A model generated the notes under the pieces. That model did not search any database, was not told the DNA's origin, and worked only from the letters and a program-made list of their open reading frames with translations. A DNA stretch of 13,465 nt. Source: Thermostichus sp. DRC_bins_24 (GTDB lineage Bacteria > Cyanobacteriota > Cyanobacteriia > Thermostichales > Thermostichaceae). The DNA lies in NCBI GenBank assembly GCA_039794845.1, contig JAUQVK010000042.1, forward strand, positions 1-13,465. Direction: 5' to 3'. The position numbers were made by a program, and so were the translations under genes. Positions 1 through 13,465 of this stretch are shown piece by piece (within the stretch, counting starts at the first letter, position 1; every line of letters begins with the position of its first letter).

Positions 1-19
1 TCATCAGTGAAGCTATACA

Positions 20-33
20 GCCAATGCTGTCTT
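20..33 (-). promoter_or_regulatory. PAM-flanked guide target overlapping the putative -35 (TTGGCT, 24-19) of the downstream promoter
   Basis: Minus strand AAG-ACAGCATTGGC is an 11/11 match to the spacer 5' end with the canonical I-E PAM AAG. The -10 would fall just outside the window. Confidence 0.75.
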
Positions 34-57
34 CCTGTATGTAATACTGGAAGCACT

Positions 58-83
58 TAATAAGAAGAGTTGAAGCTCACTCT
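58..83 (-). terminator. Possible weak intrinsic terminator after the mini-array
   Basis: Minus strand AGAGTGA-GCT-TCA(A)CTCT forms a short hairpin with one bulge, followed by TCTTATTA. Confidence 0.25.
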
Positions 84-97
84 ATTCAGATTGAAGG

Positions 98-232
98 AAG
101 GACACCCCAAGAGTTGTGGGGAATAACCGATCGCTGGCCGGACTGATGCTGAGAGACGCACCCCCACAGACGTGGGGACAAGCATTCTTCCGGCCAATGC
201 TGTCGGTTCACCCCCATAGGATATGAGGAAAC
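98..232 (-). CRISPR. Degenerate type I-E mini-array: 2 clear repeats and 1 more decayed repeat, with short spacers of 21 and ~26 nt
   Basis: Read on the minus strand: R1 232-204 GTTTCCTCATATCCTATGGGGGTGAACCG, spacer 203-183 ACAGCATTGGCCGGAAGAATG, R2 182-154 CTTGTCCCCACGTCTGTGGGGGTGCGTCT, spacer 153-128, R3 ~127-98 GTTATTCCCCACAACTCTTGGGGTGTCCTT. R1 and R2 are 29 nt. All three keep a C-rich/GGGG stem-loop. R1 ends in the I-E-type 8-nt handle GTGAACCG. Confidence 0.85.
162..211 (-). ncRNA. Predicted ~50-nt crRNA-like regulatory guide (CreA/CreR-like)
   Basis: Inferred from Cas6e-type cleavage 8 nt before each repeat end. The product would be a GUGAACCG handle, the 21-nt spacer and the R2 hairpin. 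Its seed matches two AAG-flanked sites nearby. Confidence 0.7.
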
Positions 233-269
233 TATAGACATCATAGCATGCATTTTGGCGCACTGCCAA
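233..269 (-). promoter_or_regulatory. Sigma70-type promoter for the mini-array
   Basis: Minus strand reads TTGGCA (269-264), 18 bp, then TATGAT (245-240) preceded by the extended -10 TGC. The predicted start at ~233-234 lies immediately before repeat R1 (232). Confidence 0.65.
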
Positions 270-278
270 AGCTGTCTT
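265..278 (-). promoter_or_regulatory. PAM-flanked guide target overlapping the -35 of the mini-array promoter
   Basis: Minus strand AAG-ACAGCtTTGGC against spacer ACAGCATTGGC is 10/11. The only mismatch is at position 6, which is unpaired in Cascade R-loops. Confidence 0.75.
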
Positions 279-334
279 GATGTTTATCCAGGCTGCAAAG
301 GATGATTTGCTGAAAACCATGTGCCAAGTCTCCA

Positions 335-3067
335 TTAGTTTTCTGAATCTTTCTCAATCAGCACCCCCAACAAGGGATCCAGAGTCAGCCGCCAGTCTCC
401 CACCATTGCCACTCCCTGAGCATTGACCTCTACATAGCGGCAGTTGCGCAGTAGGGCCGATGTCCAAGTGGGGGGATTGTGTTGGGCTCTCAACGTTTCC
501 ACCAGTTCCCTCTTAGACAGGCGGGTGCTATGGGCAAGAAGTTTGCGGATCAGGGTCAGGTCAGGACGGGTGTTGAGATCCACCTGTTCTTGGGTACCGG
601 GAAAAAACAGCCCGATCTCAGTGCGTTGCAAAAAGATGGTGGCTACAGAGGGTTCACCTAGGCGGGTGGCAGCAGCGATCGCACTTTCGTCGTCTTCCTT
701 TTTCAGGTAGGTAAACTGGTCGGGCTTGGTATCAGCGTGGGGCGGCGGAATTTTTACCTCATTGGCACGGGTTTGTTTGGCGGCCTCTTCTTCGACCCGG
801 TATTTCTCCAGAGAGGTGCTCCAGTCCTCGGCATGAACCGCCTCCAGTGCTTCAGGAATCGGCATTACCAAGTCATACACCGACTCGATCAGGGTATCCA
901 TCTCCTCGGGTAGTTGCACCTGGGAGCGGTGGCGGAGAGTGAGCCAACTGCGGAGCAGAATATGGCGATCGTAAACATAGCGGCTGTCGCCAAATTCGAC
1001 GGTGCCTTCAGCGGTTAGGGTTGGTTCAATGACCCACAGAGTTGGGGTTCTAAGGGGGGCCGGTCGCCCGTCACGGGTGTGGCGGTGGAGCCGTCCAGAG
1101 CGTTGCAGGAGTAGGTCGATCGGGGCTAGGTCGCTGATCATCAGGTCAAAGTCCACATCCAAACTTTGCTCAATCACCTGGGTAGCTACCAGCACAAAGC
1201 GCTGGGGGCGATGGTCGGTCCCTTTGCCAAATTTTTCTAGGCAGTCCTTTTCAATCCGCTCCCGATCTCTGAAGAGAAAGCGCCCATGAAATAATCCCAG
1301 TTCTTCAGTTGAGAAGTGAGCTTGAAGCTTTTGACAAACGGCCTGGGCACGGTTGACGGTAGAGCAGATTACCGCCACACAGCCGCCTTCGTGGCTCAAT
1401 ACCTGGTGCAGTTCGGCGGCCCATTTATCGTCGTCATTGCTGGCCCAGCGAATCTCTAGGGCGCGGCGAACGTGGTCTGAGGCGGCAAAGGTCTGGGCTA
1501 CGGCTACCCCACTGGAGAAAGCGGTAATCCGAGGATAGGAGGCCTCTGGTAAAGACGGGACGGGCTGGCTACATCCGGTCGCGTAAGCAGTCAATAAGCG
1601 CTGACGGGTAGTGGTGGGCAGTGTTGCCGAGAGGGCAATCACAGGGGATCCCAGCACAGCAGCCCATTCCAAGAAGCGCTCCAGGAGGGTGCTGGTGTAG
1701 AGGTCGTAGGCGTGGATCTCATCGAGAATGACGGTGCGCCCCGCCAGACCAAAGAGGCGCACAAATTGATGGCGCGAGCGCACTACTCCCATCAACCCCT
1801 GGTCTAGGGTGCCCACCCCATAGGGACTGAGTAATGTCCGTTTGCGGGCCGTATGCCATTCGCTGGCAAAGACACCCCGTCCCTCCTCGTCGTAAACCTG
1901 ATCCAAACGACAGACAGTTTCTTGGTACTCCCCCTTGAGGGCAGCGGCCCCGTGGCTGAGGGTGAGATTCACCACCTTGTCGGCATAACGCTTTCGCAAA
2001 AAATCCTGCACCCGCTGAAACATGGCATTGCTCGTGGCTTGGGTGGGCAAGCCAATGTAGAAGCCTCCCGCACCGGCCTGGTGCTGTAAATGATCCGCCA
2101 GGTACAGCGCTGCCTCCGTTTTGCCCTCCCCCATGGAGGCTTCCACCATCACCAGGCAGGGCGGTGTGAGGGTAGCGGTTAGATGAATCGCTGCCTCTTG
2201 CAGGGGACGAGGTGTAGTGATGAACGAAAACAAGTCCGTAAAGTTGAGGGGATTTCCGGTTTCCGGCTGGATCCAGCCCTGGGCTTTGAGGGCAGTTTGG
2301 GCCTTCTGGGTCAGCTCCTTGGCGTAGTCTGCAAAGGGCTGATCGTTGGCATAGGGAAAGCTGGCAGGATTGGAGGCAATCCAGTCAGAGACGGTGGTGA
2401 GTCCTGCCAAAATCATGGCGGCAGCGTTGTCACACTGGTTGGGTAAATCCTCAGAAGTAAGTTGTACAAAGTCCTGAAGTTGCCGAAAAATCTCTAAACT
2501 GTGTTGCCGCCATGCACTGCGCTCATCAGTGCCTGCGATCGCGCTATCCAGGTCATCAATCTCTTGCTGAGCCGGGAAAAAGCCGTGGTGCCCGCCCACA
2601 ATCATCCCCAGTTTACAGGCCAGTCGCTTGGCCTGACGCTTAGATAAATCTCGACCAACTCCAATGGTCACCAGAAAATCTGGCAACGTGGCCGCAGTCA
2701 CCAACCCGTGGGGGGCATTTCGGGGTCTGCGGCGTTCTGGGGGCAATGAAGCCCATCCATCATACAGACCCGCTCCCACCAAGGCTTTCCCCACTTCGCT
2801 CACCTGAAACTGAAAGGCAGGACTGACTTTGCCTAAGTCGTGGCTCCCGGCCATGAAGCCGCAGAAGCGCACTAGGGATCCGTCATTGGGTAATCCCAAT
2901 CCTTGGGCGAGGCGCAGGCGAGCGACCGAACTCAGGTATGTCTTGACAATCTCCATCGCCACTGCCGCTGTATCTGCCAGGTGGCAGATCACCGGATGGT
3001 AATTAGGCTGGCCATTGTCTCTGAACTGTCCCTGCCCTGTCTTGGCCCAAAATCGTGGCTGACTCAT
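335..3067 (-). CDS. cas3: CRISPR-associated nuclease/helicase Cas3 (HD + SF2 helicase), type I-E-like
   Basis: 910-aa ORF. The N-terminal HD domain shows FWAK, HLAD, HDLGK, HG, HHG and SDW motifs. The helicase shows Walker A ASMGEGKTE, LPTQATSNAM, DEIH, SAT, HGRF, TQVIEQSLDVDFD and QRSGRLHRH. AGGAG lies 8 nt upstream of the ATG, which overlaps the WYL gene stop (ATGA, 3064-3067). Confidence 0.97.
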   Translation of the reverse strand: MSQPRFWAKTGQGQFRDNGQPNYHPVICHLADTAAVAMEIVKTYLSSVARLRLAQGLGLPNDGSLVRFCGFMAGSHDLGKVSPAFQFQVSEVGKALVGAGLYDGWASLPPERRRPRNAPHGLVTAATLPDFLVTIGVGRDLSKRQAKRLACKLGMIVGGHHGFFPAQQEIDDLDSAIAGTDERSAWRQHSLEIFRQLQDFVQLTSEDLPNQCDNAAAMILAGLTTVSDWIASNPASFPYANDQPFADYAKELTQKAQTALKAQGWIQPETGNPLNFTDLFSFITTPRPLQEAAIHLTATLTPPCLVMVEASMGEGKTEAALYLADHLQHQAGAGGFYIGLPTQATSNAMFQRVQDFLRKRYADKVVNLTLSHGAAALKGEYQETVCRLDQVYDEEGRGVFASEWHTARKRTLLSPYGVGTLDQGLMGVVRSRHQFVRLFGLAGRTVILDEIHAYDLYTSTLLERFLEWAAVLGSPVIALSATLPTTTRQRLLTAYATGCSQPVPSLPEASYPRITAFSSGVAVAQTFAASDHVRRALEIRWASNDDDKWAAELHQVLSHEGGCVAVICSTVNRAQAVCQKLQAHFSTEELGLFHGRFLFRDRERIEKDCLEKFGKGTDHRPQRFVLVATQVIEQSLDVDFDLMISDLAPIDLLLQRSGRLHRHTRDGRPAPLRTPTLWVIEPTLTAEGTVEFGDSRYVYDRHILLRSWLTLRHRSQVQLPEEMDTLIESVYDLVMPIPEALEAVHAEDWSTSLEKYRVEEEAAKQTRANEVKIPPPHADTKPDQFTYLKKEDDESAIAAATRLGEPSVATIFLQRTEIGLFFPGTQEQVDLNTRPDLTLIRKLLAHSTRLSKRELVETLRAQHNPPTWTSALLRNCRYVEVNAQGVAMVGDWRLTLDPLLGVLIEKDSEN

Positions 3068-4038
3068 GGCCGTTTCTCCTGTTGATACTGGGCCTGCATT
3101 CTTCTAATCTCCTCCTTCACCATCTCCACCAACTCCGGGGGATCCAGTACCCGCGCCCCTTTGCCGTAGTACATCACCCACCGCTTCACCTCCTGCAGCC
3201 CCCGCACCACCACATGCAACCTCAGGGATCCCTCGGGAAGTTCCTCAATCACCTGCGTGGCATGCCAGTGCCGCTCCCGAATGTAGGGGGCCGTGGCCGC
3301 ATCAAACTCAATCACCACCTCCTGCGGGATCCCGCCCACCTCATGTTGAAAGGCCGACTCCAGATGGGCCTCCCGGTCAAACTTGGGATCCACCTCAAAG
3401 CGCACGTCCAGGAGCTTGATCGCCTGGATGCGATCCACCCGAAACCAGCGAGGCTCGCCCCGGAGGTGACACCAGCCCGTCACATAGGGGTTACTGCGGG
3501 AAAAATGCAGCACATAGGGATCCAACTCCCGCTCGGAGGGGGGCTTACCGGGGGTGGCATAGCGCATCCACACCCGCCGCTGCTGCTGACAGGCCTGCTC
3601 CAACACCTGCCAGATTTCCGGGTTGAGATCCAGCTCCGCCCCCACCCGAAACAGGATGTGCTCCTGGGCCAACTGCTGCAAATCCACCCAGGCTTGCTCC
3701 GGGATCCGCTGCGCCAACTGCTGGATGGCCGATTGCAACTGCGAGCGATAGGCCGAGCCGGCATAGGCCGCCAGCATTCTGGCCCCTAGGGTGAGGGCAA
3801 ACAGTTCCCCCTCGGTCAGTGGAATCGAGGGCAAGCGCCAGGCGGGATCCGTGTAGTGAAACCCCCGTGCTTTCGAAAACTGAATGGGAGCCTGGAATCG
3901 ATCCTTCAAAAACTGAATATCGGCTCTGACCGTCCGTTCGCTCACCTCCAAAGCTTCTGCCAGCAATAGGGCAGTCGGTCGGGGATGACTGCGCAGGATC
4001 TCATCCAGTTTCAAGGCCCGTTCTAATTGACGTAGCAT
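3064..4038 (-). CDS. HTH-WYL(-WCX) transcriptional regulator (YafY/PafB-like), CRISPR-associated
   Basis: 324 aa. It has an N-terminal winged HTH (LAEALEVSERTVRADIQFL) and a WYL core (ERELDPY...YVTGWCHLRGEPRWFRVDRI). The C-terminus is WCX-like (WVMYYGKGARVLDPPEL). There is a 4-nt overlap with the cas3 start. Confidence 0.93.
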   Translation of the reverse strand: MLRQLERALKLDEILRSHPRPTALLLAEALEVSERTVRADIQFLKDRFQAPIQFSKARGFHYTDPAWRLPSIPLTEGELFALTLGARMLAAYAGSAYRSQLQSAIQQLAQRIPEQAWVDLQQLAQEHILFRVGAELDLNPEIWQVLEQACQQQRRVWMRYATPGKPPSERELDPYVLHFSRSNPYVTGWCHLRGEPRWFRVDRIQAIKLLDVRFEVDPKFDREAHLESAFQHEVGGIPQEVVIEFDAATAPYIRERHWHATQVIEELPEGSLRLHVVVRGLQEVKRWVMYYGKGARVLDPPELVEMVKEEIRRMQAQYQQEKRP

Positions 4039-4063
4039 TACTTACTCTGAAGAGGATGAGAGC

Positions 4064-4085
4064 ATTCTAGGCAACTCACCCGGCA
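4064..4085 (-). promoter_or_regulatory. Putative promoter of the WYL-cas3 operon with a -26-type element
   Basis: Minus strand TGCCGG-N10-TAGAAT ends 25 nt upstream of the WYL ATG. No canonical -35 is present at 17-bp spacing (GCGTTT). Confidence 0.5.
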
Positions 4086-4169
4086 AAAACGCTTCCGACC
4101 TGCCGAAGCTTAATCTCAAAGATCAAAGATTGAAAAACGTATCTGATCATTCAGAGATCATTCAGCCCC

Positions 4170-5552
4170 ATGAGCGGGATGATCACCCCTCAGCTGGGTA
4201 AAGGGTGGGCAAATCACCCACAGACCATGATGACCAGACAGTACACTGAACGCGAGTCAACCCCCGTCGAAAGGTCTATGGATACGGATCGATCTGAATC
4301 CCCTGCTATCCTTTTTGGGCTACCCGCTTCCCAAGGCAGATGGATCCTGATTCCCCTGGGCATCCTCGTCTTGTTGTGCCTGGGAACGGTCTATTCCTGG
4401 AGCATCTTCAGGATCCCCCTCGAAGCGGAACTGGGGATCCCAGCCGGGGATAGCCTGCTGCCCTATACTTTTGCCCTGGTTTTCTACGCTGCCCTAATGC
4501 CGATCACCGGTTTTTGGATCCCCCGCTGGGGATCCCGCCGGGTGCTGGCGGTTGGGGGCTGCTTAGTGGGATTGGGCTATAGTTTGGCCAGCTTTGCCGA
4601 TTCGATTGGGTTGATGACCCTCTGCTACGGCGCCATTGCCGGCAGTGGGGTAGGGATTGCCTATGGGGTGCCGATGGTGGTGGCCGCCCGTTGGTTTCCG
4701 GAGCGCAAAGGGTTGGCGGTGGGATCCACCATTATCGGTTTTGGCTTGTCTCCATTGGTCACAGCGCCGCTGGCCAATCAATGGATCGCTTCGTTCGGGG
4801 TGAGGGCAACTTTGCTGATCTTGGGTTTGCTATTTACAGCGGTGATTGTAGCGATCTCCACCCAATTGAAATTGCCTCCACCCAACTGGATCCCGGCTCC
4901 AATTCAATCAATTCAATCAAAAGAATCTCTGGGTAAAACAGATAAAATTCCTGATGAACCTATCTCCGGTTATTCCCCCCCGCTATTCAAAAGTAAGTCT
5001 TTTTATGGGCTGTGGATCTGCTATGCCATCGGCACATTGATTGGTTTAAGTGCCATCGGTATTTCCAGCCCAGTGGGGGAAGAAATGATCCACTTGGATC
5101 CCACGGCAGCCGCTAGGAGTGTAGCCCTGTTTGCGGTTTTCAACGGGCTCAGTCGGCCTTTATTCGGTTGGTTGGCGGATCGTTTTCAACCTGCTCAGGT
5201 AACCATCGGATCCTATGGGTTGGTACTGCTGGCTTCTGGGCTGATGATTCTGTCGGGATCCCTTCTCTCCTACTGGGTGGCCTTTTCGATCCTGTGGTTT
5301 TGTCTGGGGGGCTGGCTGGCGATGGCGCCCACCTTGACCCTGCGTTTGTTTAACCCGGATCGCTACGCCCAGAACTACGGCATTGTCTTCACCGCTTATG
5401 GGGTGGGTGCCCTAACCGGAACCCTGATCACAGGTCGAATCCGGGATAGCTTTGGCAGCTACAGCTACACCTTTTACGGCATGGTCCTTCTGGCTGTTCT
5501 CGGGATCCTCGTGGCGAGGGGATTACTTAAGCCCGCAGTGACAATGGGATAG
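4170..5552 (+). CDS. MFS transporter, oxalate:formate antiporter (OFA) / lactate transporter-like
   Basis: About 12 hydrophobic segments with OFA-type motifs LGTVYSWSIF, GSGVGIAYG, RWFPERKGLAVG..IIGFG, FNGLSRPLFGWLADR and NYGIVFTAYGVG. The true start may be the ATG at 4278 (MDTDRS). Confidence 0.88.
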   Translation: MSGMITPQLGKGWANHPQTMMTRQYTERESTPVERSMDTDRSESPAILFGLPASQGRWILIPLGILVLLCLGTVYSWSIFRIPLEAELGIPAGDSLLPYTFALVFYAALMPITGFWIPRWGSRRVLAVGGCLVGLGYSLASFADSIGLMTLCYGAIAGSGVGIAYGVPMVVAARWFPERKGLAVGSTIIGFGLSPLVTAPLANQWIASFGVRATLLILGLLFTAVIVAISTQLKLPPPNWIPAPIQSIQSKESLGKTDKIPDEPISGYSPPLFKSKSFYGLWICYAIGTLIGLSAIGISSPVGEEMIHLDPTAAARSVALFAVFNGLSRPLFGWLADRFQPAQVTIGSYGLVLLASGLMILSGSLLSYWVAFSILWFCLGGWLAMAPTLTLRLFNPDRYAQNYGIVFTAYGVGALTGTLITGRIRDSFGSYSYTFYGMVLLAVLGILVARGLLKPAVTMG

Positions 5553-5680
5553 ACACAAGGTCAGTGAAAGGATCCCCGGAGCCCGTATTTGCTAACGTTG
5601 AGCTTGCCGATATGGCCGCTTCTGGGTGGACCCTAACCTGGTTCGCCTCTTGCCCTCTCTACTGAACCGCTCTCTTCACC

Positions 5681-7234
5681 ATGTCCACTCCCTCTAGCAG
5701 CAGCGAAGCTGCCCAACGTTCCGCCCGCCTGGAAAAAGCCCAACACCTGCAGGAACAAGGGATCCTTCCCTACGCCTATTCCTTTGCGGTTACCCATTTG
5801 GCTGCAGACTTACAAGAGAAATTTGCCGATCTAGAGCCCGGTGCCGAACGCGAGGATGTACAGGTGGCCGTGGCAGGGCGGATTCGGGCGCGGCGGGTTA
5901 TGGGCAAGCTGGCCTTTTTCACCCTGCAGGATCGCTCCGGCAGCATTCAGCTCTACCTGGAGAAAAAACGGCTGACGGAGCAGATGGGAGAGCTGGCTTT
6001 TAAGAACCTGGATAAATTGATCGACTCCGGCGACTGGATTGGGGCCAAGGGCTGCCTAAAGCGCACCGAAAAAGGGGAACTGTCGGTACGGGTGGACGAA
6101 TATCAGGTGCTCACCAAAGCGCTCTTGCCTTTGCCAGACAAGTGGCATGGCCTGCGGGATGTGGAGAAACGCTACCGCCAGCGCTACGTGGATTTGATCG
6201 TCAACCCCGAGGTGAAACAAACCCTGATCGATCGGGCCAAGACCATTCAGTCGCTGCGACAAACCCTGGAAGAGCAGGGGTTTGTGGAGATCGAAACACC
6301 GGTTTTGCAGGTGATCCCCGGCGGAGCCGAGGCACGGCCCTTCATCACCCATCACAATGCTTTGGATTTGGATCTGTACCTGCGCATCGCCACCGAATTG
6401 CACCTGAAGCGGTTGGTGGTGGGGGGCCTCGAGCGGGTTTACGAGATCGGGCGTATTTTCCGCAATGAAGGCATTTCCACCCGCCACAACCCGGAGTTTA
6501 CTTCGCTGGAGGTGTATCAAGCCTTCGCCGATTACCACACGATGATGGATTTGACGGAGACCCTGATCTGCAATGCTGCCCAAAGTGTGCGCGGATCCCT
6601 ACACCTAACTTATCAAGGGGAAGCCATCGACCTCACTCCCCCTTGGCGGCGAGTGACGATGCAGGATCTGGTGGAAGAGGTGACCGGGATCCGAATTGAG
6701 GTGGAAACTGAACCCACAGAAGCTCTCTTGGCCTCTTTGAAACAGTTGGGGATCCCGGATTTGGCGGCACAAGACTCGGCGGGCAAGTTGCTGGTGAAAG
6801 CCTTCGAGCACTGTTGTGAAGACCGCCTGCGCCAGCCCACCTTTGTGTTGGACTATCCGGTGGAGGTCTCTCCCCTAACCAAACCCCACCGCCGCAAGCC
6901 AGGGTTAGCAGAGCGTTTTGAGCTGTTTATCGTCGGGCGAGAGACGGCCAACGCCTATTCTGAGCTGACGGATCCGGTGGATCAGCGGCAACGGCTCGAG
7001 GCACAAGCGGCCCTGAAAGCTGCAGGTGATGAAGAAGCCCATTTTTTGGATGAAGACTTCCTCACCGCTCTGGAATACGGCCTCCCCCCCACAGGCGGCA
7101 TGGGCATGGGGATCGACCGGCTGGTGATGCTCCTCTGTGATGCCCCCAGCATTCGGGATGTGATCGCCTTTCCCCTGCTGCGGCCCGAAGCCCTGGAAGC
7201 CTCTTCCGGTCGTGCGGAGCACGATGAAACCTAA
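5681..7234 (+). CDS. lysS: Lysine--tRNA ligase (class II)
   Basis: OB-fold anticodon domain ([14 protein letters not shown]), followed by [35 protein letters not shown], motif 2 [15 protein letters not shown] and motif 3 [20 protein letters not shown]. Confidence 0.98.
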
Positions 7235-7246
7235 GCGGGATTCCTT

Positions 7247-10200
7247 TCAGCCCACCTGCCCTTCTTCCCAGAGACGGCCTTCATACCCCTGTAGCTTGAG
7301 GGCGGTCTGAAAATCCTGACAGGCTCCCTGCCAATCTCCGCCGGCAGAGCGGGCCAAAGCGCGATTGAGGTGAGCCTTGAGATGGTGGGGATCCCGTTCG
7401 ATCACCTGCGTGTAATCACGAATGGCCGACTGAAAATTCCCCTGCTGCGCCTGAGCATAGCCGCGATTGTTCAGCACCCAGAGCCTTTCCTGGGGTTCCA
7501 ACTCCAGGTGTAGCAGCTGCGTGTAATCTTCAATGGCTCTGGGAAGGTCTCCAGAGCGATCCCACAACAAAGCGCGGGAGAGCAAGGCCTGCTGCTCCTG
7601 GGGGTTCAAGATCAGAGCCTGGGTGTAGTCGGCGATGGCCAGATCGATGCTGTGGGCTTGCCGGTGCAGATCCCCCCGTTGACGGTAAGCCAGGGCCGCA
7701 TCGGCCATGCCCCAGTCGCGATTGCGGTTCAGGGCTTGGGTTAGATCCTCGAAGGCCGCCGCCCCATCCCCCAGAGCCTGTTGCACGGTCGCCCGCAGCG
7801 CAAACCCCTGCGAAGCATCCGGTTGTCGTTGGATCACCACTGTGAAATCGGTCAGCGCCCCGGGCCAATCCCCCACCTGCTGGCGAGATAGCCCCCGATA
7901 CAACAATGCCTCGGTCACCAAGGGATCCCGCTCCCCACGGTTCTCATGAATGGTCAGCTCCAGCACCCGATCCAGATCGGCCATCGCTCCGGCTGCGTTT
8001 TGGCGGAGATAGCGGGTTTGGCCCCGTTTCAGGTGCGCTTCCAAATGCTGCGGTTGCCCCTGAATCACCAGGTCAAAGTCGGTTTCTGCCTCTGCATACC
8101 GCCCCAGTTGCAACAACAGGGATCCACGGGCCAGGCGGGCCATCAGGTGCTGGGGATCCCGTTGTAGGGCGCGGCTCAGATCTTGTAGGGCCGCTTCCCC
8201 CTGGCCCAACTGTTGCAAGGCTTGCCCCCGCCGCCACAGGGCTTCGGTATGGTCGGGATCCTGCTGCAAAACCTGACTTAAATCCTCAACGCCGGAGGCC
8301 GAGTTACCCAGCTGCAAATGGGCGATGCCCCGCCCCAACCAAGCCGCCCAAGCCTGAGGTGAGCCAGGCCCTAACCCACGCGGATTCTGCTGCAAGACCC
8401 GGTCGTAATCGGCAACCGCCTCTTGCCAATGGCCCAAGCGCTGGTGCAGCTCCGCCCGCTCCAGGTAGAGATCCCACAGATCCGGTTCCAAGCACAAGGC
8501 CTGGTTCAAATCCTGCAACGCCGCTTCCAGATCCCCGGCTTGCGCCCTTGCCCGCGCCAGCTCCCGATAAAGTTGTGCTTGGGCCAGCTCCACCCCCAGC
8601 TCCAAAGCCCGGCTGTAGTCATGGGTAGCCCCCTGCACATCCCCGAGGGCGGTTCGCACCTGGCCGCGATGCAAATACGCCAGCCCCAAATTCGGATCCC
8701 GTTGCAGAGCTTGATCCAAATCCGCGAGCGCCCCCTGCCAGTCCCCCTGACGTTGCCGCGCCATCCCCCGCCGCAAATGAGCACTCACCAGCCATTCTGG
8801 CCCGCGGGGGCGGGCCAGATTCTGGCCCGTGGAGATCCCAGGCTGGGCAGCCAACTGCAGCACCCGCGAAAAATCCGCACAGGCATCGCCCCACTCTCCG
8901 TGGTCAAAATGGGCGTTGCCCCGGTTCAGGAAAAGCTGTGGATTGTCGGGATCCCGTTCTAGGGCGGCGGTGTAGTCTTGCAGGGCCGCCACCGGGTTCC
9001 CCAGAAGCAAATGCACCCGCCCACGACTGCTGTAGGCGGTGGCATCTTCGGGATCCAGAGCAATCGCTTGGCCAAAATCCGCAAGGGCCGCCTCGATATT
9101 GCCCAAATCCAGGTGGGCGATCCCCCGATTCAAAAAGGCTTTTGCCTCCTGCGGATCCCATTGAAGGGTACGGTTGAAGTCTTCTAGGGCAGCAGCTGGA
9201 TCCCCGAGCCCTTGACGAGCCAAGCCCCGGTACAGATAGGCCCGCGATAACTCCGGGTTTAAGTCGATGGCCCGTCCACAATCGGCAAGTACCGAGTCGA
9301 GGGCGTTGTTGCCCATGTGGGCGATGGCGCGATTCAGGTAGAGCTGCGCTTGACCGGCAGGATCCTGGTCACTCAGCTCGATTGCCCGAGAAAAGTCTTC
9401 TACCGCCCCCGACCAATCTCCCAGGCCCTGACGGGCCAAGCCGCGGTGGTAATAGGCCTTGCTCTGCTGGGGATCCAACCGCAGCACTTGGGTATAGTCC
9501 TCAACACCCCCCGCCAGATCCAGCAAATTCACCCGCGCCACCCCGCGGTTGAAATAGGCCTCCACATCCTGGGGATCCCGTTTGAGCACCTCCGAAAAGT
9601 CTTCCGCTGCCCCCCGCGAATCACCTAGGTTGCCCCGCACCACCCCCCGGTTGAAATAGGCGCGCGTATCCTCCGGATTCAGTTCAATCGCCCGCGAATA
9701 ATCGTCAATCGCCTGCTGCTGCTGATTCAGTTGTCGGTGGGCATTGCCACGGTTGTAATAGGCCACGGCCCATTGCGGGTTAAGGCTGAGGGCTTGGCTG
9801 TAATCGGCAACGGATCCCTCGTAGTCCTCCAGACGGTAGCGGGCGATGCCCCGGTTGAAATAGGCGCGCGCATCCCCGGCCAACTGGATCACTTGTGTGT
9901 AATCTTCGATGGCCCCCGCCAGATCTCCAATTTTGTAGCGGGCGATCCCCCGTTGGCTGTAAGCACGGCTGTCTTTGGGATCCAGCTGAATCGCCAGGGT
10001 ATAGTCGGCAATCGCCCCCATCGGATCCCCTTGGCGGGCTTTATCCTGACCACGGGCCAAAAGGCGCGTCACCAAAACCTGATCCACCCCGACATCGGGA
10101 AGGATGGATTCGTTGTGGGTGGGCAACAGAGGGCGCAACGCCTCCAGCACCTCAGCAGCCGACTGAAAGCGATCCTGCCAGCGGGGGCGAATCATGCGAT

Positions 10201-10996
10201 CGAGAATATCCGCCAGCTCATCGCTCACCTGCACCCGATCCCGCCAGAGCAATTGGCCGGTGCGAGGGTCATCGCGGATTTTGTTGGGGGTGCGCCCCGT
10301 CAGCGCTTGAATGGCCAGCACCCCAAGGGAGTAAAGATCACTGCAGGGTTGCGGTTTACCGTTCAACTGTTCTGCCGGCATGTACCCAACCGAGCCGATC
10401 ACCGTTGCCAACTGGGTTTGGCCGGGGGCATGGCTCACCAACATCCCCACTTCCTTCACCGCCCCAAAGTCGATCAACACCAACTTGCCGTCGGCATCGC
10501 GGCGCATCAGGTTGGCGGGCTTGATATCGCGGTGCACAATGTGGTGGGCATGGACATGGCGCAAAATGTCCAAAACATCTCGCAGCAGTTCCAGCACTTC
10601 CGCCTCGCTAAACGGCTTGCCTGAAACCATCTCATGGCTGAGATCATGCCCGGCAACAAACTCCTGCACCAGATAAAAGTCATGATTCTGCTCGAAGTGG
10701 GCCAACAGGCGCGGCACCCGATCATAGTGGTTGAGCTGGTTGAGAACCTTGGCTTCCCGTTCAAACAGTTTGCGAGCCGTGGCCAAGGTATAGGGATCTG
10801 TTGAAAGGGGACGCAGACGCTTGACAACACAGGGGGTATTGAACGTGTCTTGATCCACCGCCTTATAGGTCACGCCAAATCCACCCTCTCCCAAGGGATT
10901 GAGAATGCGGTAGCGCCCCCTCAGAACCGTTCCCGCTCTGACCCGGTCATCCATAGCTGAAGCCAATGCTGCTGCAAGCTGGCTCGATTTTGCCAC
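7247..10996 (-). CDS. Hanks-type (Pkn2-like) Ser/Thr protein kinase with a long C-terminal TPR array
   Basis: Kinase motifs LGEGGFGVTY, VVK, HRDIKPAN, DFG, GYMPAE and DLYSLG. These are followed by ~930 aa of 34-aa TPR units (AY.NRG.....LG....A..DY..AL.L.P). The start may be the ATG at 10954 rather than the GTG at 10996. Confidence 0.93.
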   Translation of the reverse strand: MAKSSQLAAALASAMDDRVRAGTVLRGRYRILNPLGEGGFGVTYKAVDQDTFNTPCVVKRLRPLSTDPYTLATARKLFEREAKVLNQLNHYDRVPRLLAHFEQNHDFYLVQEFVAGHDLSHEMVSGKPFSEAEVLELLRDVLDILRHVHAHHIVHRDIKPANLMRRDADGKLVLIDFGAVKEVGMLVSHAPGQTQLATVIGSVGYMPAEQLNGKPQPCSDLYSLGVLAIQALTGRTPNKIRDDPRTGQLLWRDRVQVSDELADILDRMIRPRWQDRFQSAAEVLEALRPLLPTHNESILPDVGVDQVLVTRLLARGQDKARQGDPMGAIADYTLAIQLDPKDSRAYSQRGIARYKIGDLAGAIEDYTQVIQLAGDARAYFNRGIARYRLEDYEGSVADYSQALSLNPQWAVAYYNRGNAHRQLNQQQQAIDDYSRAIELNPEDTRAYFNRGVVRGNLGDSRGAAEDFSEVLKRDPQDVEAYFNRGVARVNLLDLAGGVEDYTQVLRLDPQQSKAYYHRGLARQGLGDWSGAVEDFSRAIELSDQDPAGQAQLYLNRAIAHMGNNALDSVLADCGRAIDLNPELSRAYLYRGLARQGLGDPAAALEDFNRTLQWDPQEAKAFLNRGIAHLDLGNIEAALADFGQAIALDPEDATAYSSRGRVHLLLGNPVAALQDYTAALERDPDNPQLFLNRGNAHFDHGEWGDACADFSRVLQLAAQPGISTGQNLARPRGPEWLVSAHLRRGMARQRQGDWQGALADLDQALQRDPNLGLAYLHRGQVRTALGDVQGATHDYSRALELGVELAQAQLYRELARARAQAGDLEAALQDLNQALCLEPDLWDLYLERAELHQRLGHWQEAVADYDRVLQQNPRGLGPGSPQAWAAWLGRGIAHLQLGNSASGVEDLSQVLQQDPDHTEALWRRGQALQQLGQGEAALQDLSRALQRDPQHLMARLARGSLLLQLGRYAEAETDFDLVIQGQPQHLEAHLKRGQTRYLRQNAAGAMADLDRVLELTIHENRGERDPLVTEALLYRGLSRQQVGDWPGALTDFTVVIQRQPDASQGFALRATVQQALGDGAAAFEDLTQALNRNRDWGMADAALAYRQRGDLHRQAHSIDLAIADYTQALILNPQEQQALLSRALLWDRSGDLPRAIEDYTQLLHLELEPQERLWVLNNRGYAQAQQGNFQSAIRDYTQVIERDPHHLKAHLNRALARSAGGDWQGACQDFQTALKLQGYEGRLWEEGQVG

Positions 10997-11060
10997 AGCC
11001 TGGCCGGCTTCCGATGAGCTTCTGGACAGATTTGCGCCAGAACTTCACCAGAACTTCAGC

Positions 11061-11456
11061 TTAGTCCTGGATGTAGTCGCTGCCGTCGATCAGCGCGGCT
11101 TCGGCCCGTTGAAATTCCCGTCCCAGGTAGGCCGCATGGCTCAGTTGCGAGACCACGTTGCCTGCTTCCCCTTCGAAAAGTTGCACACACAGTTCCTTCG
11201 CCGTGCGCCCGACAAAGACCCGCTCCGGAGCCCGATGAACAGGCCCCCGCGCCGGGATCACGGCCCCCGTGTCGGGATCGGTGGCCAGCCCCTGCTCGTT
11301 GATCACGGTGCTGAAGTGCTTGGCGCAGATCAGTTGGCGCTCCCGATCCAGGTAGATGACGAAGTAGCCCGCCGGATCCAGATCCAGGGGTCGGCGGGAC
11401 AGATGCTCATCGATGCTGCGAATCTGATCGGCTAAAGGTGGGAGGGAAGTGGGCAT
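11061..11456 (-). CDS. DUF4346-like conserved cyanobacterial protein
   Basis: 131 aa with LDPAGYFVIY, GRTAKEL, HAAYLGRE and C-terminal YIQD motifs, recalled as typical of this family. Confidence 0.75.
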   Translation of the reverse strand: MPTSLPPLADQIRSIDEHLSRRPLDLDPAGYFVIYLDRERQLICAKHFSTVINEQGLATDPDTGAVIPARGPVHRAPERVFVGRTAKELCVQLFEGEAGNVVSQLSHAAYLGREFQRAEAALIDGSDYIQD

Positions 11457-11617
11457 AGCGCAGAGGGCCAGAAACAGTCGAAAGAAACGTAATCGAGATT
11501 ACTTTTCTCTGTTTTATTCTGGCAGATGAACGGATTCCTTTGCGGCTTATGTCTTGGGCTGGGTGTCTCTTTTTCCTTAGGAATAAGAAGTACCCCCTAT
11601 ATTCCCGTTGAGATCCC

Positions 11618-12250
11618 TTAGCGAGGGGCCACCCGATAGAACCGGGTGGCGGTCACCCATTGGTTGGAGGGGATCTCTTCCACAACAATGGCGCGGGCGA
11701 TCGCGTCGGCAAACTGGGATCCCTGAACCCGCACATCGGCAAACTGCCCACCCCGCTCAAAGGAGGCAATTTCTTGAATGTTCAGAGGACGGGGAGCGGC
11801 CACGGCCAGTACCTGGGCTTGGCCAAAAGGCGGGGCGATGGTCAACTGGTAGCGGGCTCCTGGCGGCGGAAAGGTACGCACTTCTCCGGCCCGCAGAAAC
11901 TCGTTCCCCCCCGACAGGCGGTTGGGCAAGATCAAATTGATGCGGCCATCCGCTTGCACGCTGAACAGGTAAACGTAGGCATCGCGGTTGGTGCTGAGGC
12001 TGATGCGAATCGGCTCACCGGCACGATAAATCGGGTTGGATCCACGCCGATCCAGCTCCAGATTCACACTTAGATCGGAAGGCACCGGGTTGACGATAAT
12101 GGAGCGGGTACCGATATCCAACTGACGGGTATCGGCGATTTGTAACCGCTGCAATGGCGGATAGATGCCCAAAGTTTGTGGAAAAACGGCTGTGGCTGGG
12201 GCCATAGACAACCCCAAGGCTAGCGGCAAGAAAAGCAGTTTGGCGTTCAT
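11618..12250 (-). CDS. Secreted DUF4384-like domain protein
   Basis: N-terminal signal-peptide-like segment and the pattern Y..GE.IRI....NRDAYVYLF....DG...LILPN...FP......PPFG...VLAVA. Confidence 0.75.
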   Translation of the reverse strand: MNAKLLFLPLALGLSMAPATAVFPQTLGIYPPLQRLQIADTRQLDIGTRSIIVNPVPSDLSVNLELDRRGSNPIYRAGEPIRISLSTNRDAYVYLFSVQADGRINLILPNRLSGGNEFLRAGEVRTFPPPGARYQLTIAPPFGQAQVLAVAAPRPLNIQEIASFERGGQFADVRVQGSQFADAIARAIVVEEIPSNQWVTATRFYRVAPR

Positions 12251-12535
12251 GGTTTACACCGGATCAATGGCTAGGTTCATCCTAGAAGGCGGCACGGGTT
12301 AGGAGGCTCTGGCTTCGCGCAATGTCAGATCGCCCGCTGCGGCAGTTTCCCATGCTGCAGATGGTAGCCCCGGTGGGGGAAAGACGCTGAACCGGCGGGA
12401 GCACTCCACCCATCGATATTGATATCGATTGATATTCAAAGGCGTGGGTCTTGAGGTCAAAACAGGTTGAGGAAGGGCTAAGCTGCAAACACAGGGGATC
12501 CTATCCGGATCCAGGCCAACCATAGACCATCGCCC

Positions 12536-12973
12536 ATGACACAGAGCAGCTACCAAGAGGGCATCGAAGCCGTTCAGGCTGGGGACTTACCGGCTGCAAT
12601 TCAAGCCTTTCGGCAGGTGCTTGCCTCCGACCCTACCCATACCGAAGCCCGTTACAAACTGGCCTGGGTGCTGGGCATGAGTGGCTATCTGGATCCCGCC
12701 TTGGCCGAACTCGAGGCGGTTTTGGCGGCGGATCCCAACCATGCCTCCGCCCATTACAACCGGGGGGCACTGCTGTTGCAAAAGGCTCAACTGGAGGCGG
12801 AAATGGATGGGCAAATGGATCTGGAGATCCTTCAGCAGGCGGAAGTGGCTTTTCAGGCGGTGATGCGTTTGGATCCCACCGACCAACGGGCCTATGCCTT
12901 TCTCAATCTGGTCAAGCGGGCCATTCGCAACCATCAGCCGCAAACGGATGCGTCTAACCGTAATAGTGGGTAA
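12536..12973 (+). CDS. Small TPR-repeat protein
   Basis: 145 aa with about 3 TPR-like units (AIQAFRQVLASDP, ARYKLA, AHYNRG, AFQAVMRLDP). Confidence 0.8.
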   Translation: MTQSSYQEGIEAVQAGDLPAAIQAFRQVLASDPTHTEARYKLAWVLGMSGYLDPALAELEAVLAADPNHASAHYNRGALLLQKAQLEAEMDGQMDLEILQQAEVAFQAVMRLDPTDQRAYAFLNLVKRAIRNHQPQTDASNRNSG

Positions 12974-13433
12974 ACCCCTGCACCAGGGCTTCTATCGGGG
13001 CAATGCTGGGATCCCCTAGCTCTGCTTCTGCTTCCTGAGAAACCTGTTGCACCACTTCGGGCGGCAATTGCAGCTTATCCACCAGCTGCTGAAAGGCCTC
13101 CAACTCTTCCAGATTCACCACAGGCTCCTCCGGGCTGCGGGCGCTGGCGGCGATCACCATATAGCCCAACTTGAGGATCATGCGCTTCTCGGCCTCATCG
13201 CTGATCTTGGGCAACACTTCATCCAACGGGATCCGCTGCACAAAGTACTCGCGGATTTGTTTGGCAAGGCTGGCCTGCTGGCCGGGATCCGGAGCAAAAT
13301 GCTGCGAGAGTTGTTGAGCCATCAATTCCACTTCCGCAACCTCCAGCGCACCATCCGACCAAGCCATGGCGGTGACAGCTCGCAACAGATTCATTTGTTT
13401 GGGGGTAATGCCGGGCGGGGGGGGAGTAGGCAT
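12954..13433 (-). CDS. TerB-family (tellurite resistance-like) protein
   Basis: 159 aa with LLRAVTAMAWSDG.L...EV and a second helical repeat. It overlaps the TPR gene convergently by 20 nt. Confidence 0.7.
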   Translation of the reverse strand: MPTPPPPGITPKQMNLLRAVTAMAWSDGALEVAEVELMAQQLSQHFAPDPGQQASLAKQIREYFVQRIPLDEVLPKISDEAEKRMILKLGYMVIAASARSPEEPVVNLEELEAFQQLVDKLQLPPEVVQQVSQEAEAELGDPSIAPIEALVQGFTHYYG

Positions 13434-13465
13434 GCATCCTCCTGGGGGATCATCTGCCAGTGTAG

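Follow-up and report, generated by a model that had tools for sequence, protein, structure and literature searches.

A mini-array beside cas3 of Thermostichus sp. DRC_bins_24 as a probable CreR-type RNA-guided regulator of cas genes

Introduction

In the type I-E cas locus of Salmonella enterica, a degenerate CRISPR mini-array encodes CreR, the guide of which partly matches an AAG-flanked site in the promoter region of casA (10.1101/2023.03.10.532045). Salmonella CreR repressed a reporter 8.6-fold in Escherichia coli, and this repression was lost upon mutation of the guide and was relieved by extra CRISPR RNA (crRNA) or by AcrIE8 (10.1101/2023.03.10.532045). In both CreA and CreR, the two repeats have decayed in a complementary manner, such that the 8-nt 5′ handle survives in PsiR1 and the 3′-handle portion in PsiR2 (10.1101/2023.03.10.532045). 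Type I-E CreR is treated as established in a later preprint (10.1101/2024.10.29.618823). Shmakov et al. (PMC10120712) reported a long spacer between cas3 and cas8 in ~20% of I-E loci and mini-arrays in ~19% of bacterial I-E loci, with a target in the cas8 promoter region that has the canonical AAG protospacer-adjacent motif (PAM) and a seed-weighted partial match; in subtype I-F1, a mini-array was shown to work as a regulatory guide (PMC10120712). Here, we describe a mini-array, PsiR1-PsiS-PsiR2, that adjoins cas3 in a 13,465-nt stretch of DNA from the cyanobacterium Thermostichus sp. DRC_bins_24 (assembly GCA_039794845.1, contig JAUQVK010000042.1, positions 1 to 13,465; hereafter, the window), and that is probably a CreR-type RNA-guided regulator of cas genes.

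Structure of the mini-array

The leftmost 334 bases of the window constitute the region 3′ of cas3, and the mini-array unit begins 57 nt past the cas3 stop codon, adjoining a cas locus of the matching subtype, I-E. All of its parts are read on the minus strand. PsiR1 (232-204), a degenerate repeat with a 6-7-bp hairpin, retains an intact 8-nt 5′ handle (GTGAACCG, 211-204), as judged against canonical repeats. It is followed by PsiS (203-183), a spacer-like guide segment of 21 nt, and by PsiR2 (182-154), a degenerate repeat with the canonical CCCCAC/GTGGGG hairpin (-11.7 kcal/mol) and a decayed 3′ end. Farther downstream are a 27-nt anti-guide segment, or "spacer 2" (153-127), which is complementary to the handle and the 3′ part of PsiS, and PsiR3 (126-98), the most degenerate repeat-like hairpin (CCCCA/TGGGG with a 7-nt loop), which was recognized from direct and inverted repeats and from repeat comparison and the 5′ flank of which pairs with the handle region of PsiR1. 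The coordinates and letters of the two repeats (232-204 and 182-154) and of the enclosed 21-nt spacer were already correct in the initial annotation, which a model had made from the sequence alone; absent from it were the PsiR3 hairpin, the fact that 153-127 is complementary to the spacer, and the position of the upstream target on the -35 box of the mini-array promoter.

For comparison with the repeats, the 29-nt canonical repeats from six of 15 related loci were used, in place of the source genome's own. PsiR1 is identical to these at all of the last 8 nt (8/8), at 4-5 of the first 12 nt, and at 18-20 of 29 nt overall; the corresponding values are 4/8, 10-11/12, and 20-22/29 for PsiR2 and 4/8, 7-9/12, and 16-18/29 for PsiR3. 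PsiR1 retains the 5′ handle and PsiR2 the hairpin half, which, at the level of sequence, is the CreA/CreR signature of complementary decay. The unit departs from a canonical array in that its repeats share 16-22 of 29 nt with the canonical ones, its spacers are 21 and 27 nt long (32-33 nt in relatives), and PsiS has two targets no more than 173 nt away. The processing of type I-E crRNAs by Cas6e follows an established rule; applied to the layout of handle and hairpin, this rule predicts a mature CreR-like RNA of ~50 nt (211-162, minus strand) that consists of the 8-nt handle, the 21-nt guide, and a 21-nt 3′ hairpin.

The AAG-flanked sites

The beginning of PsiS recurs twice near the mini-array, each time directly after AAG and on the strand of the spacer. 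AAG is the established type I-E PAM in E. coli, and the evidence for the same PAM in this clade consists of the 14 of 14 targets described in the next section. Site A (278-255, minus strand) comprises AAG at 278-276 and a protospacer at 275-255 that matches the guide at positions 1-5, 7-11, and 13 and mismatches it at positions 6 and 12, so that its 11-mer (275-265) departs from spacer positions 1-11 at position 6 alone. Site B (33-10, minus strand) comprises AAG at 33-31 and a protospacer at 30-10 that matches at positions 1-11 and 13 and mismatches at position 12, and its 11-mer (30-20) is an exact copy of spacer positions 1-11. Beyond position 13, matches to the spacer are scarce at both sites, and the likeness between sites A and B ends outside the PAM and positions 1-14. 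Within the array, the spacer is preceded by CCG, not AAG. The recurrence of the spacer start after AAG at 278-265 and 33-20, and the CCG in the array, agree base for base with the initial annotation; its statement that mismatches fall at positions 6 and 12, with a match at 13, holds for the two sites taken together, but site B by itself matches at position 6.

Chance is a poor explanation of these recurrences, as the initial annotation had argued. The PAM plus the 11-mer, with position 6 free and at most one mismatch, has two matches in the 13,465 bases on both strands, as against 0.04 expected, and at least two were obtained in 1 of 200 shuffles. The bare 11-mer (at most one mismatch) has four matches, as against 0.35 expected, a number reached in 0 of 200 shuffles; these are the spacer, site A, site B, and 10962-10972, which lacks AAG.

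A role of the anti-guide segment as a second guide was considered and rejected: read on the minus strand it has no further seed match within the window, and read on the plus strand it has two, as against 1.78 expected.

Co-variation of guides and targets in related loci

Related loci were obtained by a profile search of genome contigs with an alignment of 53 Cas3 sequences. It yielded 79 loci, 34 of them from cyanobacteria or close kin, and the source genome is not among them. The junction from cas3 to the next gene is readable in 26 loci, eight of which contain the mini-array unit (L002, L009, L011, L015, L018, L020, L021, and L022). Units were also found outside these junctions, in L026 and in the annotated plasmids L080 and L081, giving 11 relatives in all. 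L080 is pREC1 of Acaryochloris marina MBIC10699, the single match of the 340-nt region in a blastn search against plasmids, in which a regulator gene and cas3 are followed by a 598-nt gap and by casA, casB, cas7e, cas5e, cas6e, cas1e, and cas2e. L081 is pIITB6_3 of Synechococcus elongatus IITB6, in which a WYL gene and cas3 are followed by a 349-nt gap and by casA, casB, cas7e, and cas5e, where the stretch ends; a plasmid of S. elongatus PCC 11802 is a listed match besides that of IITB6.

The window and its 11 relatives contain 14 spacer/target pairs, for which the loci were scanned whole and on both strands. AAG flanks all 14 targets. Each of the 13 sites that are perfect at positions 1-5 and 7-11 is located at most 173 nt from the spacer, on the spacer's strand, and after AAG; the 14th target, a site in L080 that matches at 9 of these 10 positions, lies 158 nt from the spacer and likewise follows AAG, and none of the 11 distant 9-of-10 sites has an AAG. 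When the seed mask was omitted (at least 11 of 13 matches, 361,756 bases), 19 sites were obtained, namely the 14 local AAG sites, with mismatches confined to positions 6 and 12 (and one at position 9), and five distant sites without AAG and with mismatches at other positions. From position 1 to position 21, the numbers of matching pairs among the 14 are 14, 14, 14, 14, 14, 3, 14, 14, 13, 14, 14, 1, 14, 7, 8, 7, 8, 3, 1, 2, and 1. The 12 loci have nine distinct seeds, every one of which has its counterpart in the target of the same locus, and the observed score was reached in 0 of 20,000 reassignments of targets between loci. In the arrays, the spacer is preceded by CCG or CCA.

Cascade flips out every sixth base of the guide. 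Freedom at positions 6 and 12 together with strict co-variation elsewhere is what selection for pairing between the Cascade-bound guide and its target would predict. Because of the comparison with the 11 related cyanobacterial loci, an origin by chance or decay is untenable; spacer-target co-variation in relatives had been proposed as a check, and the spacers and targets of the 12 loci do not drift independently.

The hairpins are conserved as well. The stem of PsiR1 has 6/6 pairs in 11 of the 12 loci and 5/6 in the remaining one, ends exactly 8 nt before the spacer, and shows wobble and both-sided changes (e.g., C-G to T-A at the innermost and the third pair); these pairs were read from a listing anchored at the spacer, and a MAFFT alignment put the 5′ stem halves of five loci with longer loops out of register. 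The canonical CCCCAC/GTGGGG stem of PsiR2 is kept in 10/12 loci. The guides are 20-23 nt long in eight loci and 32-33 nt long in four, the length of 22 nt in L002 having been determined by eye (the listing gives an alternative stem). In E. coli, shortened crRNAs allow the assembly of Cascade, and interference is still possible with spacers of more than 20 nt (PMC5159557). Because such shortened crRNAs still function in E. coli, the chromosome is most likely protected by the short match and not by the short guide; wild-type-sized R-loops are required for R-loop locking (PMC6859484).

Promoter context and proposed mechanism

Site A overlaps a predicted promoter. P1 (269-240, minus strand), which is of the sigma-70 type, consists of a -35 box TTGGCA (269-264), an 18-nt spacer, and a TG-extended -10 element TATGAT (245-240), with 10/12 consensus matches. 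It is the sole promoter-like site in positions 1-400 (one site, as against 0.4 in shuffles), and the same scan detected no terminator-like site in this region. The -35 box coincides with target positions 7-12 of site A, the -10 element ends 7 nt short of PsiR1, and P1 would drive only the mini-array within the window. At site B, positions 7-12 read TTGGCT (-35-like, 24-19), and a matching -10 element would fall at or beyond position 1. The initial annotation had the guide target two promoters, and this description stands for site A, which lies on a consensus promoter; site B shows only the -35-like hexamer.

Among the 14 targets of the window and its relatives, 12 have a -35 hexamer of the TTGnCn type at target positions 7-12, and 11 have a -10-like hexamer (A at its second and T at its sixth position) 16-19 nt downstream; for the upstream targets, the distance from the end of the -10 element to PsiR1 is 6-34 nt. 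In the window, L002, and L080, a promoter coinciding with the target is also called by a promoter-prediction scan. Ten of the 12 loci have their target, or one of their two targets, upstream of the mini-array, and therefore the guide probably represses its own promoter in these loci; in L081, the sole target is downstream of the mini-array. In L020 (2634-3166) and L022 (6534-7033), a toxin-antitoxin gene pair of the brnT/brnA type is located antisense to cas3 between cas3 and the mini-array (BrnT_toxin, 4e-26 in L020 and 2.5e-26 in L022; BrnA/CopG antitoxin matches in L022 only), and ~35 nt separate PsiR2 from the start of cse1 in L020. Because cas3 is separated by brnT/brnA and the gap is short, the targeted promoter of L020 and L022 must drive the Cascade operon, the leader of which contains the mini-array.

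The open reading frame (ORF) after the mini-array encodes Cse1 (PF09481, E 1e-73 to 3e-87) in 6/6 genome loci tested, L009 and L015 not having been submitted, and the ORF in L009 resembles the annotated casA of L080. The next recognizable gene is cse1/casA in 11/11 relatives.

The reading of the initial annotation, in which Cascade loaded with the mini-array RNA acts as a repressor, has strong comparative support from the AAG at 14/14 targets, the co-variation in 12 loci, the mismatches at positions 6 and 12, the asymmetric repeats, and the position of cse1 as the next gene in relatives, and the following course of events can be proposed. PsiR1-PsiS-PsiR2 would be transcribed from P1, and Cas6e would cut at the base of both hairpins to release an RNA of ~50 nt, in which the 21-nt guide is preceded by an authentic 8-nt 5′ handle and followed by a 3′ hairpin. 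Cascade loaded with this RNA would read AAG and pair guide positions 1-5, 7-11, and 13 with sites A and B, on the same strand. At site A it would cover the -35 box of P1 itself and thereby occlude the promoter. At site B, which separates the mini-array from the following gene (most likely cse1), it would either occlude a second promoter or form a roadblock to read-through. With 11-13 paired bases, the R-loop would be incomplete, so that Cascade would stay as a repressor and Cas3 would not be licensed. The outcome would be negative feedback, in which more free Cascade leads to less guide and less Cascade, and titration of Cascade by ordinary crRNAs or by anti-CRISPRs would relieve the repression.

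Several observations weigh against this model. The single hairpins of PsiR1, PsiR2, and PsiR3 are no better than those of shuffled sequences (z -0.7, -1.8, and -0.6, respectively), and the repeat units are held to be real because of their likeness to the canonical repeats of relatives and their conservation, not because of fold energy. Positions 1-5 and 7-11 were used for finding the targets, and the features independent of that search are the PAM, the strand and location of the targets, and positions 6, 12, and 13; the unmasked 13-mer scan recovers the same 14 targets despite the seed-based first search. The 12 loci are related, and locus counts overstate the number of independent events. The window edge lies 19 nt beyond site B, so that the -10 element and the regulated gene are out of view, and no cas6e or Cascade genes of the source genome were seen in the sequence covered. 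The promoter-prediction scan gave no promoter at the target of L020 or at the second site of L080, and the hexamer scan gave no -10 element in L018 and L026. Finally, the unit is absent from 18 of the 26 readable junctions, including those of L003 and L028 (80-81% Cas3 identity), where cse1 begins 14-35 nt after cas3, and the element is therefore dispensable.

Alternative explanations

The gene downstream of site B lies outside the window, which leaves room for an addiction module of the CreTA type, in which site B would control a small toxin gene, for an RNA or a protein, past the window edge and the mini-array would be the antitoxin CreA. Loss of Cascade would then be lethal, and regulation of cas8e would be possible alongside, as CreA RNAs are able to do both jobs (10.1101/2023.03.10.532045). 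In the two relatives with two sites, L009 and L080, 346-360 nt separate the second site from cse1, and L009 holds a 104-aa, weakly HTH-like ORF there; however, this ORF is broken in L080, cse1/casA is the next recognizable gene in every relative, and seven loci (L002, L011, L015, L018, L020, L021, and L022) have a single target, with a promoter that reads through the mini-array toward cse1. No toxin candidate was found in positions 1-153 of the window, and nothing toxin-like in 34-97. An addiction module is thus improbable. The degeneracy of the repeats (16-22 of 29 nt), the existence of close relatives without the element, and the insignificance of the individual hairpins would also suit a non-functional relic, that is, a decaying CRISPR fragment with a spacer likeness that arose by chance, for example by local duplication of a 14-nt stretch. 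Such a fragment would hardly decay with exactly the asymmetry that function predicts, and it does not account for the AAG at 14/14 targets, the periodic mismatches, and the nine co-varying seeds, or for the similarity between sites A and B that stops outside the PAM and positions 1-14; we regard a relic as very improbable.

Direct repeats over a -35 box are typical of operators, and a gene for a WYL regulator is conserved beside cas3, so that the three copies of the 11-mer might bind a protein such as this WYL/HTH regulator, the repeat-like hairpins being incidental. Operators would leave unexplained the mismatches at positions 6 and 12, in 11/14 and 13/14 pairs, respectively; moreover, AAG precedes the outer copies in every case, whereas the middle copy comes after CCG or CCA, the end of a crRNA handle, and invariably sits between such a handle and a hairpin of the Cas6e type. 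There is accordingly very little probability that the copies are protein operators. The last alternative is a small protein of 92 aa encoded by an ORF at 57-335 (minus strand), the ATG of which shares bases with the stop codon of cas3 (TAATG). This frame stays open for 98 codons in the window and for 97 in L002, and the two are 36% identical over 89 residues by tblastn (E 2.5e-4). Nevertheless, in 7/12 loci, including L080, a stop interrupts the frame after 11-42 codons, the "conserved peptides" correspond to the target, the -10 element, the handle with the seed, and PsiR2, the remaining tblastn matches are translated CRISPR repeats, and the ORF matches no Pfam family. The coding reading was rejected on the grounds that the frame is short in these seven loci and that its conserved parts are nucleic-acid elements, and its probability is minute. 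A CreR-type regulator of cas genes remains the best account of the locus.

The anti-guide stem

Beyond the two-repeat unit, the region contains an extended complementarity. A 146-nt transcript of 235-90 is predicted to fold, at -59.7 kcal/mol (z -3.98, 0/200 shuffles), into a single extended stem that is capped by PsiR2 and in which the handle of PsiR1 and the guide pair with 153-116. The duplex between the handle plus guide and the 70 nt after PsiR2 has an energy of -41.8 kcal/mol in the window (z -4.7, 0/300 shuffles), and the anti-guide duplex also reaches significance in L009 (z -6.1) and in L080 (z -2.0), but in none of the nine remaining loci (z from -1.4 to +0.9). The three stem-bearing loci are those with a second, downstream AAG site, which has mismatches at positions 9 and 12 in L080 and is a degenerate homologous site in L009. 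The second-site regions of L009 and L080 are homologous, so that the three loci represent only two independent lineages.

It is conceivable, if rather unlikely, that one branch of the cyanobacterial I-E systems, to which the window belongs, departs from the published cases in the wiring of its CreR-like guide, so that the guide represses its own promoter and binds a second site before the Cascade genes, and a stem of ~25-30 bp, formed with the anti-guide encoded in cis directly behind PsiR2, locks the handle and guide in the primary transcript. If functional, the stem could separate the guide unit from the effector unit as an insulator or terminator, or could gate maturation of the guide on the availability of Cas6e and Cascade. 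A functionless, hairpin-mediated inverted duplication is an equally simple origin of the stem. Such a layer of insulation or gating is not mentioned in the available portions of the texts on CreR and mini-arrays (10.1101/2023.03.10.532045; PMC10120712; 10.1101/2024.10.29.618823).

Neighboring genes and further observations

The cas3 gene (335-3067, minus strand) is intact and encodes a type I-E Cas3 of 910 aa with HD nuclease and helicase domains (Pfam matches: Cas3_HD, 1.1e-41; Cas3-like_C_2, 1.2e-37; Cas3_C, 5.5e-13). Its HD residues and its GEGKT and DEIH motifs show no variation across 53 aligned sequences. The best named relatives are Cas3′ proteins of the cyanobacteria Phormidium and Parathermosynechococcus (81-83% identity); the closest sequence, P0001 (92% identity), is available as a protein only, and the contigs of L001 and L004 (82-84% Cas3 identity) stop within cas3. 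Upstream is a gene for a WYL/HTH regulator (3064-4038, minus strand; WYL, 3.4e-21; WCX, 4.5e-21; HTH_11, 4e-07), which belongs to the context of the locus and lies outside the RNA circuit. It overlaps the start of cas3 by 4 nt, which suggests that the two genes form an operon. The pairing of a regulator gene with cas3 is also observed in L080, L081, and L026, and in this clade cas3 may be under the control of a protein and Cascade under that of an RNA guide. A scan of positions 1-400 against Rfam detected no CRISPR-DR or other family; a single sub-threshold snoRNA match (15.6 bits, as against a gathering score of 50) was discarded.

The arrangement of the locus varies among relatives. In L026, from a metagenome-assembled genome (MAG) of the Gloeobacteraceae, the mini-array (~9455-9647, minus strand) is reversed and is located between the WYL gene (8406-9428) and cas3 (from 9992); the AAG-flanked target, with mismatches at positions 6 and 12, is 121 nt upstream of the spacer, and cse1 directly follows cas3. 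From the second AAG site to cse1, L009 (13076-13390) and L080 (~12100-12240) share a conserved stretch with 77% DNA identity, which in L009 forms the 104-aa ORF, with weak HTH_17/Xre-like matches under the Pfam cut-offs, and in L080 is a frame without a usable start. This stretch may be a small regulator or a remnant of one, and it hints at what may lie past the edge of the window. In L081, the presumed leader of casA contains a third repeat-like hairpin (~9930-9955) downstream of the targeted promoter, whereas the third hairpin of the window is upstream of site B. In L002, the PsiR2 hairpin and a T-rich run (5436-5463) were flagged as terminator-like, and read-through from the mini-array to cse1 may be attenuated. 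In L015 (~3087-3270), the cse1 frame after the mini-array seems to stop after ~60 codons, with more ORFs downstream, which may reflect a disrupted cas8e in this MAG or an assembly error. Inspection by eye indicated the brnT/brnA insertion, or remnants of the antitoxin start, in L018, L021, L030, L032, L005, and L007.

Outside the cyanobacteria, the I-E loci L072 (~9680-9760) and L073 (~7310-7390) of Limosilactobacillus have a solitary repeat-like handle and spacer just upstream of cas3; positions 1-5 and 7-11 of the spacer recur 49-50 nt upstream after AAC, with a mismatch at position 6. This element looks like a CreR-like unit ahead of cas3 in lactobacilli. In the spacer between cas3 and casA of E. 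coli K-12 (L082, ~8480-8510), one antisense repeat-like element was seen by eye near the cas3 stop codon.

Relationship to known systems

A full-text literature search found no cyanobacterial I-E mini-arrays, and the string "cyanobacter" occurs 0 times in the main texts of the three CreR/mini-array papers; cyanobacterial loci may already be listed in the supplementary tables of one of them (PMC10120712). With the loci described here, the RNA-guided self-repression of Cascade in type I-E systems would reach beyond the enterobacteria to the cyanobacteria, including plasmids of S. elongatus and Acaryochloris marina. They also appear to preserve an evolutionary footprint of the binding rules of Cascade, in which the PAM is invariant, the paired positions co-vary, and the flipped-out positions 6 and 12 drift. 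Users of these endogenous I-E systems should expect feedback on Cascade levels, and anti-CRISPRs or heavy expression of crRNA should de-repress the operon.

Among regulators of other subtypes, the haloarchaeal I-B CreTA systems resemble the present locus in having two divergent repeats, a guide that partly matches a nearby promoter, and repression without cleavage (10.1101/2023.03.10.532045; PMC10120712). In subtype I-B, however, CreA is directed at the promoter of a neighboring gene for a toxin RNA, whereas cse1 is downstream in the cyanobacterial relatives. The tracr-L RNA of II-A cas9 systems is likewise a natural guide that autorepresses by a short duplex, of 11 bp in that case, with the promoter of its own effector, but it belongs to a class 2 system with a single effector and is derived from a tracrRNA, with no mini-array (PMC10120712).

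The mini-arrays for cr-like RNAs reported by Shmakov et al. share with the cyanobacterial loci the location between cas3 and cas8, the AAG, and the seed-weighted match (PMC10120712). In their E. coli example, the target is downstream of the mini-array, as in L081; in 10/12 cyanobacterial loci, it is upstream, on the mini-array's own -35 box. Salmonella CreR is similar in the I-E cas locus, the pattern of repeat decay, the AAG-flanked partial match, and the use of Cascade as a repressor, which is predicted in the present case. It differs in that the host here is a cyanobacterium and that the 21-nt guide has an 11-nt contiguous match (5+5+1 effective), as against 15 consecutive nt in Salmonella; moreover, one of the targets here belongs to the mini-array's own promoter and the other is downstream, and the locus also has a third hairpin and an anti-guide stem. 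Because I-E cas3-cas8 mini-arrays with AAG-flanked promoter targets were published in 2023, the present locus belongs to a known type and opens no new class of mechanism; it adds to the published CreR type with two modest twists, targeting of its own promoter and the anti-guide stem.

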